DNA from: a virus
Lineage: Duplodnaviria > Heunggongvirae > Uroviricota > Caudoviricetes
IMG/VR virus record: IMGVR_UViG_2671180884_000018
DNA length: 6,772 nucleotides
Reading direction: 5' to 3' (one strand)
In this document: one piece after another, positions 1,736-5,134 of the stretch
Layout: each line of letters opens with the position of its first letter
Numbering within the stretch: the first letter of the stretch is position 1
Program-made: the position numbers and the translations under genes
The notes under the pieces: generated by a model
The model's input: only the letters and a program-made list of their open reading frames with translations
The model's database searches: none
What the model was told of the DNA's origin: nothing

Positions 1736-4700
1736 ATGGGTAAAGGCAGCAGTAAGGGGCATACCCCGCGCGAAGCGAAGGACAACCTGAAGTCCACGCA
1801 ACTGCTGAGTGTGATCGATGCCATCAGTGAAGGGCCGGTTGAAGGTCCGGTGGATGGATTAAAAAGCGTGCTGCTGAACAGTACGCCGGTGCTGGACAAT
1901 GAGGGGAATACCAACATCTCCGGCGTCACGGTGGTGTTCCGGGCAGGTGAGCAGGAGCAGTCACCGCCGGAGGGGTTTGAATCCTCCGGCTCCGAGACTG
2001 TGCTGGGTACGGAAGTGAAATATGACACGCCGATCACCCGGACCATCACGTCGGCAAACATCGACCGTCTGCGCTTTACCTTCGGTGTACAGGCACTGGT
2101 GGAAACCACCTCAAAGGGAGACAGGAATCCGTCGGAAGTCCGCATGCTGGTTCAGATACAGCGTAACGGTGGCTGGGTGACGGAAAAAGACATCACCATT
2201 AAGGGCAAAACCACCTCGCAGTATCTGGCCTCGGTGGTGGTGGATAACCTGCCTCCGCGCCCGTTCAATATCCGGATGCGCAGGATGACACCGGACAGTA
2301 CTACAGACCAGCTGCAGAACAAAACGCTCTGGTCGTCATACACCGAAATCATCGATGTGAAACAGTGCTACCCGAACACTGCACTGGTCGCCATACAGGT
2401 GGACTCGGAGCAGTTCGGCAGCCAGCAGGTGAGTCGTAATTATCATCTTCGCGGGCGCATTCTGCAGGTGCCGTCGAACTATAACCCGCAGACGCGACAA
2501 TACAGTGGTATCTGGGACGGAACGTTAAAACCAGCATACAGCAACAACATGGCCTGGTGTCTGTGGGATATGCTGACCCACCCGCGCTACGGCATGGGGA
2601 AACGTCTTGGTGCGGCGGATGTGGACAAATGGGCGCTGTATGTCATCGGCCAGTACTGCGACCAGTCAGTGCCGGACGGCTTTGGTGGCACGGAGCCGCG
2701 CATCACCTGTAATGCGTACCTGACCACACAGCGCAAGGCGTGGGATGTGCTCAGTGATTTCTGCTCGGCGATGCGCTGTATGCCGGTATGGAACGGGCAG
2801 ACGCTGACGTTCGTGCAGGACCGACCGTCGGATAAGGTGTGGACCTATAACCGCAGTAATGTGGTGATGCCGGATGATGGCGCGCCGTTCCGCTACAGCT
2901 TCAGCGCCCTGAAAGACCGCCATAATGCCGTTGAGGTGAACTGGATTGACCCGAACAACGGCTGGGAGACGGCAACAGAGCTTGTGGAGGATACGCAGGC
3001 CATTGCCCGTTACGGTCGTAACGTCACGAAGATGGATGCTTTTGGCTGTACCAGCCGGGGGCAGGCACACCGCGCCGGGCTGTGGCTGATTAAAACAGAA
3101 CTGCTGGAAACGCAGACCGTGGACTTCAGCGTGGGCGCAGAAGGGCTTCGCCATGTGCCGGGCGATGTCATTGAAATCTGTGATGATGACTATGCCGGTA
3201 TCAGCATCGGCGGGCGCGTGCTGGCGGTAAACAGCCAGACCCGGACGCTGACGCTCGACCGTGAAATCACTCTGCCATCCTCCGGTACCACGCTGATAAG
3301 CCTGGTTGACGGAAGCGGCAATCCGGAACGATACCGATGCCGGATCGCCCTGCTGTCCCCACGCATTTACCGCCCGGACTGTCAGCCTGTAGTTCCCCAG
3401 CGCCAGTTGCCTGAAGCGGTATGTGGTTTCCGCCGTCCGGGCCGTGCTGACCAGCAGCTCACTGCCGTCATCCGCTGCCACGGTCAGGCGAAGCAGGAAA
3501 CTCACGCCCTTCACCACCTTCGGCGTGTCCCAGCGCGCCAGCACCTGATATTCCCCGCTGTCTGCGGTGACTTCGGCGGTCAGGTGCTGCACCGCTGGCG
3601 GCGTGACACCATTCACCGTGCCGCTCTGGTCGCCGTCAAAGTGCGCCCCGTTATCCACGATGGCCTCTTTTTCCGGTACATGCTGCACGGCGGTGATGGC
3701 ATACGTGCCGTCGTCGTTCTCACGGATACTCACGCAGCGGAACAGGCGCTGGCGCAGCGTCGGCAGCTTCAGCCCCCACACGCTGTATTCAGCAACGCCG
3801 TCAGGAACACGGCTCACTTTCACCTTCACGCCGTCGGTGACGGACTGAACCTCCACGCTGACCGGATTGCCGCACCGGCAGCGCCGTCACAGATTGAGCT
3901 GACGCCGGGCTATTTTCAGATAACTGCCACGCCGCATCTTGCGGTTTATGATCCGACGGTACAGTTTGAGTTCTGGTTCTCGGAAACGCGGATTACCGAT
4001 ATCAGGCAGGTTGAAACCACAGCCCGCTACCTTGGCACGGGGCTGTACTGGATAGCCGCCAGTATCAATATCAAACCGGGCCATGATTATTACTTTTATA
4101 TCCGCAGTGTGAACACCGTTGGCAAATCGGCATTCGTGGAGGCCGTCGGTCGGGCGAGCGATGATGCGGAAGGTTACCTGGATTTTTTCAAAGGCAAGAT
4201 AACCGAATCCCATCTCGGTAAAGAGCTGCTGGAAAAAGTAGATCTGACGGAGGATAACGCCAGCAGACTGGATGAGTTTTCGAAAGAGTGGAAGGATGCC
4301 AACGATAAATGGAATGCCATGTGGGCTGTCAAAATTGAGCAGACCAAAGACGGCAAACATTATGTCGCGGGTATTGGCCTCAGTATGGAGGACACGGAGG
4401 AAGGCAAGCTGAGCCAGTTTCTGGTTGCCGCTAACCGTATCGCGTTTATTGACCCGGCAAACGGGAATGAAACGCCGATGTTTGTGGCGCAGGGCAACCA
4501 GATATTCATGAACGACGTGTTCCTGAAACGCCTGACGGCACCCACCATTACCAGCGGTGGCAGTCCTCCGGTATTTTCCCTGACATCAGACGGAAAGCTG
4601 ACCGCTAAAAATGCGGATATCAGTGGCAGTGTGAATGCGAACTCAGGGACGCTCAACAACGTCACGATTAATGAGAACTGTCAGATTAAGGGGAAACTGT

Positions 4701-5134
4701 CAGCCAACCAGATTGAAGGTGATATTGTCAAAACGGTCAGCAAGTCTTTCCCCCGCACGAACAGTTATGCCAGTGGCACCATCACGGTAAGAATCAGTGA
4801 TGATCAGAAATTTGACCGGCAGGTCATGATACCGCCAGTGTTATTCCGCGGTGGTAAGCATGAGAATTTCAACAGTAATAACCAACAGTCATACTGGTAT
4901 TCAACCTGCCGGTTAAGAGTGACCCGCAATGGTCAGGAGATTTTTAATCAGTCCACGACGGATGCTCAGGGCGTATTTTCCTCAGTTATAGATATGCCTG
5001 CCGGACAGGGGACACTGACACTGACATTCACCGTATCTTCATCAGGAGCGAATAACTGGACACCAACAACCAGTATCAGCGATCTGCTGGTTGTGGTGAT
5101 GAAGAAATCCACAGCAGGTATCAGTATCAGCTGA
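1736..5134 (+). CDS. J: Host specificity / central tail fibre protein J (gpJ-like), 1132 codons; ORF is formally intact but codons ~531-709 are antisense nonsense caused by an internal inversion; C-terminal receptor-binding region diverges from lambda
   Basis: ATG 1736 (GGAG at 1723-1726) to TGA 5132-5134. N-terminal two-thirds ([34 protein letters not shown]…[12 protein letters not shown]) and the region from 3863 onward ([41 protein letters not shown]…) match lambda J as recalled. Between 3326 and 3862 the + frame reads an Arg/His-rich sequence ([27 protein letters not shown]…) with no J-like character. Confidence 0.9.
3315..3326 (+). repeat. Left arm of a 12-bp perfect inverted repeat (GCGGCAATCCGG) at the left inversion junction in J
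   Basis: Sequence 3315-3326 is gcggcaatccgg; its exact reverse complement ccggattgccgc is at 3862-3873. Both the forward and the inverted J reading frames pass through this 12-mer, so the crossover lies within it. Confidence 0.85.
3327..3861 (-). other. Inverted internal J segment: the - strand encodes genuine gpJ central-domain peptide (about 180 residues) that is missing from the + strand J reading
   Basis: Reverse-strand translation from 3871 down to 3314 reads [80 protein letters not shown]…[25 protein letters not shown], which is colinear with the lambda J segment that should follow …LVDGSGNP and precede PAAPS…. Below 3314 the same - frame becomes non-J ([13 protein letters not shown]…), i.e. 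antisense of upstream J. Confidence 0.85.
3862..3873 (-). repeat. Right arm of the 12-bp perfect inverted repeat (CCGGATTGCCGC on +) at the right inversion junction in J
   Basis: Exact reverse complement of 3315-3326. The forward J reading resumes here (CGG ATT GCC GCA CCG = R-I-A-A-P from 3863). Confidence 0.85.

Follow-up and report, generated by a model that had tools for sequence, protein, structure and literature searches.

A probably OmpC-specific receptor-binding domain in a lambdoid prophage J gene with an internal inversion

Gene J of lambdoid phages encodes the tip attachment or host specificity protein, which forms the central tail fibre. Does the J gene of this prophage end in an exchanged host-range module, and if so, which receptor does the module recognize? 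We analyzed a window of 6,772 nucleotides, the whole stretch of DNA from the viral record, and all positions are given relative to it. An earlier note on this DNA had claimed that J tracks lambda J closely until about position 4665, and that its AT-richer C-terminus looks like a swapped host-range cassette, perhaps for a different outer-membrane receptor.

The C-terminal module of J

In a profile search, J matched the Pfam families FNIII-A_GpJ, Phage-tail_3, Ig_J_second, Phage_Tail_Tip, and Ig_GpJ_C. Phage_Tail_Tip (PF09327, a central-fibre domain) covers residues 846-972, and Ig_GpJ_C (PF12421) then runs to the stop codon. The full name of PF12421 is [quoted passage not shown] and J scores well above the curated threshold (124.2 bits versus a cutoff of 26.2, E = 5e-36), with residues 1008-1132 aligning to positions 15-135 of the 135 positions in the profile. 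[quoted passage not shown] Two small open reading frames, at 4635-4790 (+ strand) and 4966-5148 (- strand), were rejected as candidates: they are out of frame or antisense, and J fully accounts for the domain in which they lie. The features of the window are listed in Table 1.

Table 1. Positions of J, its parts, and the neighbouring features within the window.
Feature	Position	Strand	Remarks
J (tip attachment / host specificity protein, central tail fibre)	1736..5134	+	1132 codons plus stop; ORF list, Pfam, identity to lambda
Left 12-bp inverted repeat, GCGGCAATCCGG	3315..3326	+	Inversion boundary
Inverted segment	3327..3861	-	535 bp, in place; - strand encodes native J residues ~531-709, + strand is open nonsense
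Right 12-bp inverted repeat, CCGGATTGCCGC	3862..3873	+	Inversion boundary
Transition zone (mosaic junction)	4660..4693	+	Similarity to lambda and 434 decays, just 3' of a conserved stretch; four-way alignment, blastn
RBD module of J, A8/phi330-type allele, probably OmpC-specific	4693..5131	+	Residues 986-1132; Ig_GpJ_C at 4757-5131
Loop TNSY	4757..4768	+	Residues 1008-1011; the sole two differences from phi330 (TSTY)
Hairpin	4862..4891	+	Residues 1043-1052; equals phi330 E953-S962; 5 residues are inserted in this stretch compared with lambda
RBD segment	5048..5065	+	Residues 1105-1110; comparison with phi330, PMC12502783
Terminator-like hairpin and T-run	5152..5181	+	In the J-lom spacer
lom (Ail/Lom outer-membrane beta-barrel protein), 434-type allele	5201..5800	+	PF06316, E = 2e-121

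Outside of the C-terminus and an inverted block (discussed below), J is 93-96% identical to lambda J at the DNA level (blastn). Across the window, blastn aligned positions 1-3326 to lambda at 95.6% identity and positions 3862-4692 at 93.5% identity. From 4693 to 5672, we found no blastn alignment to lambda except for one 59-bp scrap, and similarity resumes at 5673, inside lom. The earlier note's start for the divergence, at about 4665, is accurate, because in a four-way DNA alignment the identity to lambda is near-perfect until ~4659, patchy in the transition zone, and then gone. The proteins diverge in the same way: in ungapped blocks of 40 residues, 37-40 are identical to lambda J across residues 721-960, versus 1-7 across residues 1001-1120.

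When gaps are allowed, the last 147 residues (986-1132) are 44% identical to lambda J residues ~985-1132 (63/142, with three indels). Direct alignment thus found no near-identity to the C-terminus of lambda J, and we do not place the domain among the lambda-type, LamB-binding RBDs. The two RBDs do belong to one Pfam family, each forms the end of a J of 1132 residues, and they share the framework motifs GDIVK, FPR, FDRQ, FRG, DMPAG.G..LTFT, and KK..GIS. The lambda RBD (PDB 8iyk, 8xcj, and 8xck; PMC11101478) differs in that it is LamB-specific, its loop regions contain the indels, and its DNA has no detectable similarity to the module.

The cassette character of the module appears most cleanly in the comparison with phage 434. 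Both flanks are 94-96% identical to 434 at the DNA level, and only 4693-5095 is replaced (blastn); the alignments to lambda and to 434 both stop at 4692. Other RBD alleles follow the same upstream anchor in other phages. Recombination at the conserved stretch immediately 5' of the module very probably brought the allele in, with this stretch serving as a shared junction for several RBD alleles. The module is not a 434-type RBD: the two are just 44% identical over 144 aligned residues, the RBD of 434 is 5 residues longer, and there is no DNA match in 4693-5095. The receptor of the 434 RBD is also OmpC (PMC12502783, PMC11101478, and the bioRxiv version of the A8 study), and the 434 and window RBDs are independent OmpC-binding alleles.

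Downstream of J, the spacer before lom (5135-5200) is AT-rich, with 37.9% GC. In phage 434, a terminator is annotated at the place equivalent to the terminator-like hairpin of the window. The Lom protein of the window is 97.5% identical to Lom from 434 and 47.5% identical to Lom from lambda.

The receptor of the module

Residues 953-1132 of J are 100% identical to the C-terminus of the chain “A8 gpJ 713” from PDB entries 9wca and 9wcb. 9wcb holds an OmpC trimer as well, in the form of three chains named “Outer membrane porin C,” so the evidence from this entry is co-deposition; a literature search found no paper that describes 9wca or 9wcb. A8 is a fusion, at residue 964 of lambda gpJ, to the C-terminus of J from a natural E. 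coli prophage (PMC11338833; Brödel et al., Nature 2024). It retargets lambda particles from LamB to OmpC and delivers to cells that lack lamB (PMC11338833; also the bioRxiv version). The OmpC data for A8 were obtained with a chimera in which the body is that of lambda and the side fibre is engineered (PMC11338833), whereas the module in the window belongs to a natural prophage J, which has scattered upstream differences from lambda and an internal inversion. With A8, 1A2, or both, delivery was efficient for 21 of the 23 OmpC variants tested (PMC11338833). Because the efficiency of A8 varies among OmpC alleles, the natural host range of the A8-type allele should be narrower than “any OmpC.”

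A natural phage has nearly the same domain. The RBD of J is 98.6% identical (145/147 residues, across 986-1132) to that of the Stx2a phage vB_EcoS_phi330 (PV189401.1), and both predicted contact hairpins are identical. phi330 does not plate on the Keio ompC deletion mutant, and Plac-ompC restores plating; among 54 outer-membrane knockouts tested, phi330 strictly needs OmpC (PMC12502783). phi330 belongs to another genus (Pankowvirus), carries stx2a, and has a J that is annotated as shorter (1042 residues), but the lom and side-fibre neighbourhood is the same as in the window.

Judging from these sequence comparisons, we think that 4693-5131 is very probably the C-terminal RBD of a lambdoid J, in its A8- or phi330-type allele, with the porin OmpC as its receptor. 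The PF12421 domain, the identity to A8, and the mosaic boundaries support the earlier note's idea of a swapped host-range cassette, and A8 and the OmpC-dependent phi330 bear out its suggestion of a different outer-membrane receptor. Among J proteins of known receptor, the domain is 100% identical to A8 (OmpC) and 44% identical to both lambda (LamB) and 434 (OmpC). The natural phage PhiR30_1 has an RBD that is 100% identical to that of the window. A literature search on the receptors of PhiR/ECOR13 phages, whose J proteins have an identical C-terminus, returned nothing usable.

Our naming of likely OmpC-contact loops in J follows a published AlphaFold3 model (PMC12502783). In that model, hairpin E953-S962 of phi330 is predicted to point into the OmpC barrel, and the loop of 434 that is equivalent to TNSY, which is longer, is a predicted OmpC contact. 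By analogy with lambda (PMC11101478), J would trimerise. The last ~125-150 residues would fold into an Ig-like domain that sits at the distal end of the fibre, and loops on the underside of this domain would dock with the extracellular side of the porin trimer. If the signalling mechanism of lambda carries over to J, then a docking signal would pass up the beta-prism and the helical shaft of the fibre, the tail tip would open, and DNA would be ejected. The loop segments that are replaced or changed in length relative to lambda are probably where specificity changes from LamB to OmpC.

Base composition, distribution, and alternative origins

The C-terminus is AT-richer than upstream J, as the earlier note had it: positions 4693-5134 are 47.3% GC, versus 57.3% for the rest of J (chi-square p of about 1e-4), and the lowest-GC stretch of 442 bp in the whole sequence starts at 4787. 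But there is no step at ~4665. GC starts to fall at about 3900, and between the RBD and the adjoining 3862-4692 (52.0%) the difference is not significant (p = 0.12). The composition changes along a gradient, down to a final minimum. The GC3 of the RBD is 0.53, versus 0.61-0.71 upstream. Part of the GC shift arises because the amino-acid content differs: the RBD of J is enriched in S, T, N, I, and Q, while the RBD of lambda is rich in V, A, and R. For comparison, the DNA encoding the RBD is 55.4% GC in lambda and 48.4% GC in 434. We rejected AT-richness as a sign of exotic origin, since 47% is nearer to the average for E. coli genomes (about 51%) than the 57% of the rest of J is.

DNA similar to the module (covering at least 80% of its length) is found in 2,412 of 5,426 complete E. 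coli genomes, or about 44%; about 1,510 records are at 95% identity or above. Similar DNA is also found in many Stx phages and other lambdoid phages. The RBD allele of lambda is present in 96 of the 5,426 genomes (about 2%), and the top-listed records are laboratory strains. The A8-type allele is common and well characterised, and the lambda allele is the rare one. Given these frequencies, lambda is an atypical reference for the RBD of J. The OmpC module was already known and is not novel in itself: this prophage J carries a common OmpC-type allele, which has already served to redirect lambda-based particles for delivery to gut E. coli. Beyond correct annotation, its importance is small.

Could the RBD instead be a LamB-binding domain of the lambda type, altered by drift through point mutations, without cassette exchange or a change of receptor? 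The two domains are clearly homologous and of the same length class, and a few point mutations are known to shift the receptor use of lambda J (PMC11101478). But the DNA identity drops from 93-96% to undetectable within about 35 bp, the flanks remain similar to 434 while only ~400 bp is replaced, GC3 changes too, and the identical C-terminus of A8 delivers via OmpC into lamB-deleted cells. We consider drift to be extremely unlikely. It is also highly improbable that the module binds another receptor in its native phage (such as OmpF, FhuA, or BtuB) and that the use of OmpC is a peculiarity of the chimera. The native context, such as side fibres or other tip proteins, can modify adsorption, but we found no other support for this explanation; A8 was deposited together with OmpC, and phi330, which has its own body, is strictly OmpC-dependent. 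As for a recent import from beyond the lambdoid gene pool of enterobacteria, the low GC and GC3 would fit, but module-like DNA is widespread in E. coli and in lambdoid phages, the GC of the 434 RBD is similar, and the GC of the module is close to the E. coli average. We give such an import very little chance.

An inverted segment inside J

The claim that J tracks lambda closely upstream of the module holds outside of one block, but it fails for residues ~531-709. These are unlike lambda J because 3327-3861 is inverted, so that the native residues are encoded antisense. The segment is inverted relative to lambda, PhiR30_1, 434, and E. coli 2012EL-2448 (blastn). The earlier reading had missed this inversion.

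The inverted frame stays open only because TTA, CTA, and TCA codons are all missing from the native sequence between codons 311 and 718. In the inverted reading, the Ig_J match (PF24421) of the intact allele disappears, and no new Pfam match takes its place. The nonsense stands in place of the final part of the hub region and of the first Ig/FNIII domain, and one Ig-like domain is lost. Because of this loss, this copy of J is probably non-functional: its RBD is intact, but the protein most likely cannot build a working tail tip.

Position 3316, in the left repeat, is C in the window and T in the intact references, and the change from T to C makes both repeats identical. A C at 3316 is already present in 5 of 125 intact J genes. 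Owing to this base, cutting and flipping the sequence from 2012EL-2448 fails to reproduce the window. The inversion may have arisen in an allele with C at 3316; alternatively, the event itself may have converted the base.

The inversion is real, as the exact inverted protein is found on 113 public E. coli contigs (exact-protein look-up). At least four separate draft assemblies at NCBI also carry the full 6,772-bp window with 100% identity. Independent assemblies should not share the same error, because assembler k-mers are much longer than a 12-bp repeat. The T-to-C change also looks biological. These observations count against an artefact of assembly or sequence handling, with J intact and functional in the source strain. 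In favor of an artefact, the prophage of strain 2012EL-2448 is in the normal orientation and is otherwise identical (6771/6772 bases), and the inversion junction did not turn up in any of 5,426 complete E. coli genomes or 50,697 phage records, nor in the GTDB species representatives, IMG/VR, or the JGI metagenomes. (The native junction, which served as the positive control for this search, was found in at least 120 viral contigs.) Overall, we consider an artefact very unlikely. A true inversion might also be recurrent or reversible, and act as a crude on/off switch for tail-tip production in this prophage lineage. This would be possible because the reading frame stays open and an otherwise identical prophage exists in the opposite orientation, but we find it barely plausible. 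We rejected an invertase-driven switch (of the Mu G, P1 C, or Min/shufflon type): the window and its 3-kb flanks in the carrier contigs contain only tape-measure, M, L, K, I, J, lom, and stf genes, with no site-specific invertase gene, and the inverted orientation has no meaningful alternative coding.

The inversion is a cautionary case for annotation. The full-length open reading frame is publicly named “host specificity protein J,” although 178 of its residues are antisense nonsense, and the records give no sign of the disruption.

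The receptor-binding domain of J

As judged from its ORFs and Pfam hits (see table), the window comes from a lambdoid prophage, of which it is the tail-tip region. At least four NCBI draft assemblies of E. coli include contigs that are 100% identical to the entire window, and a prophage of E. coli 2012EL-2448 (NZ_CP027586.1) differs from it only by a single base and one inverted block.

PF12421 ([quoted passage not shown]) matches residues 1008-1132 of J (124 bits, Pfam). From residue 953 to the C-terminus, J is 100% identical to the PDB chain "A8 gpJ 713" (9wca and 9wcb). Upstream of residue 953, this chain carries lambda-type substitutions relative to the window's J, as expected for a lambda-A8 fusion. 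A8 is the C-terminal part of a natural E. coli prophage J, joined to lambda gpJ at residue 964; A8 particles deliver DNA via OmpC into cells without lamB, and they are effective on the OmpC of MG1655 and of EDL933 (Brödel et al., Nature 2024, PMC11338833; preprint 10.1101/2022.09.30.509847). The 9wcb entry also holds three "Outer membrane porin C" chains.

The receptor-binding domain (RBD, residues 986-1132) is also nearly identical (145/147) to that of the Stx2a siphophage vB_EcoS_phi330, which plates on the Keio ompC deletion mutant only after complementation (PMC12502783). The sole two differences lie in a short loop (residues 1008-1011; TNSY in the window, TSTY in phi330). In the AlphaFold3 model of phi330, the hairpin E953-S962 lies within the OmpC barrel and A1015-P1020 is on its rim (PMC12502783). 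In the phi330 record (L004 in our comparison; PV189401.1, 1620-5035), the annotation divides J into a short "hypothetical protein" and a 1042-residue "tail fiber protein," so the residue numbers in the phi330 paper are 90 lower than in lambda-style numbering.

The identity to A8, delivery through OmpC without lamB, the dependence of phi330 on ompC, and the conserved flanks in phage 434 (96.3% identity up to 4692 and 94.4% from 5096 by blastn, with a differing stretch of ~400 bp between) bear out the proposal of the earlier note that the C-terminus is a host-range cassette for another receptor. That receptor is OmpC. The module was already known: the finding is real and was rightly interpreted, and it is not novel.

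The complex of the lambda tail with LamB has been solved (PMC11101478). By homology with lambda, J would be a trimer whose C-terminal Ig-like domains point their bottom loops at the trimeric porin's extracellular face. Binding would spread the bottoms of the three Ig-like domains, and we infer that this movement would pass via the beta-prism fibre and the helical shaft to the FNIII domains and the hub, which would open the tail tip. When the RBD is aligned to lambda's, framework motifs are retained, and the indels and substitutions are located between them. This pattern fits a scaffold that the two RBDs share and contact loops that were exchanged; the precise contacts are predictions taken from the phi330 model.

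Table. Features of the window and of its J protein
Feature	Position (nt)	Strand	Size or J residues	Remarks
L (end), then K, I	upstream of J
J	1736-5134		1132 codons
Antisense ORF	2666-3856	minus	396 residues	composite; first ~177 residues are genuine J from the inverted block (native residues, including SFRIAA)
Left inverted repeat	3315-3326		12 bp	GCGGCAATCCGG; bounds inversion
Right inverted repeat	3862-3873		12 bp	CCGGATTGCCGC; bounds inversion
Predicted contact hairpin	4862-4891		1043-1052	phi330 E953-S962 after 90-residue offset; identical in window
ANNWTP, predicted contact	5048-5065		1105-1110	phi330 A1015-P1020 after 90-residue offset; identical in window
Terminator-like hairpin and T-run	5152-5181			after J; phage 434 has an annotated terminator at the matching place
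lom-type gene	5201-5800
Terminator-like hairpin and T-run	5827-5858			after lom; phage 434 has an annotated terminator at the matching place
Side tail fibre (start)	from 5865

Boundaries, composition, and distribution

Blastn aligned lambda to 1-3326 (95.6% identity) and 3862-4692 (93.5%) of the window, with no alignment from 4692 until 5673, inside lom. In a four-way DNA alignment of the window, lambda, 434, and PhiR30_1, the sequences are near-invariant to ~4659 and patchy across 4660-4693, so the start of divergence at 4665 given in the earlier note is correct. Beyond 4693, the DNA of lambda and 434 is unrelated to the window's, while PhiR30_1 is still colinear. As had been claimed, the C-terminus differs from lambda J: the RBDs are 44% identical (63/142, three indels), and identity to 434 is also 44%. 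The window's Lom is a 434-type allele (97.5% identity to 434 Lom and only 47.5% to lambda Lom), so the block replaced relative to lambda extends beyond J and takes in the J-lom spacer as well as 472 bp at the start of lom, up to position 5672.

The GC content is 47.3% in 4693-5134 versus 57.3% in the remainder of J (p about 1e-4), GC3 is 0.53 versus 0.61-0.71 upstream, and the lowest GC of the whole window falls within this region. The equivalent region is 55.4% GC in lambda and 48.4% in 434. The module is therefore AT-richer than lambda's and than J overall, as the earlier note had it, but there is no compositional step at 4665: GC declines gradually from about 3900 onward, and the RBD does not differ significantly from the adjoining 831 bp (p=0.12). 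The most AT-rich stretch that we measured is the J-lom spacer (37.9% GC).

The survey covered 31 J C-termini (one of them the window's) with the conserved anchor ISG[ST]VNANSG upstream; types were assigned at 90% identity or above. The 434 type was the most common (16), followed by the window type (5) and the lambda type (3). Seven C-termini from IMG/VR (L009, L016, L078, L088, L092, L107, and L111), with the same anchor upstream, have a further RBD allele that is 63-67% identical to the window's, and the C-terminus from another comparison locus, L017, is 87% identical. Among 5,426 complete E. coli genomes, 2,412 contain DNA similar to at least 80% of the length of the window's RBD; about 1,510 records reach 95% identity or above. 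The lambda allele was found in 96 of these genomes, and laboratory strains are the top-listed records. A somewhat longer query (4600-5200) was matched over at least 80% of its length by 74 phage records, many Stx1a and Stx2a phages among them.

An inversion within J

The earlier note described J as close to lambda all along its upstream part and overlooked a 535-bp inversion: at 3327-3861, the window has the matching J segment of lambda, PhiR30_1, 434, and 2012EL-2448 in reverse complement. Although J is open on the plus strand, residues ~531-709 (about 178 residues) are nonsense, with 2-12 identities to lambda per 40 residues, and Pfam's Ig_J (PF24421; residues 610-714 of the intact allele) is missing. 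Since the two breakpoints share a codon phase, the inverted segment is read as codon-aligned antisense. The codons TTA, CTA, and TCA are also absent between codons 311 and 718 of the native sequence, and so the ORF survived. We rejected the antisense ORF as a gene, as it is inverted J sequence followed by a stop-poor antisense frame of J.

The inversion junction was not found in complete E. coli genomes, phage records, GTDB representatives, IMG/VR, or JGI metagenomes; as a control, at least 120 viral contigs contained the native junction. The inversion is not an artefact, since 113 public E. coli contigs carry the exact inverted protein (the count for the intact sister allele is 701). The near-identical size and layout of the carrier contigs suggest that they represent one clone. 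NCBI names the inverted-allele protein "host specificity protein J," and the returned names give no hint of disruption. An inversion mediated by the short inverted repeats probably disabled this copy of J, in which case the OmpC-binding module, intact in sequence, is probably unused in this prophage. We regard the inversion as a minor curiosity; the remaining chance that it is more than a lesion is small.

Once the inversion is undone, the sole difference from 2012EL-2448 is position 3316, within the left repeat, where the window has C and intact references have T. The C makes both repeats perfect 12-mers, which suggests either conversion during the inversion event or an origin in the minority of intact J genes (5 of 125) that already have C.
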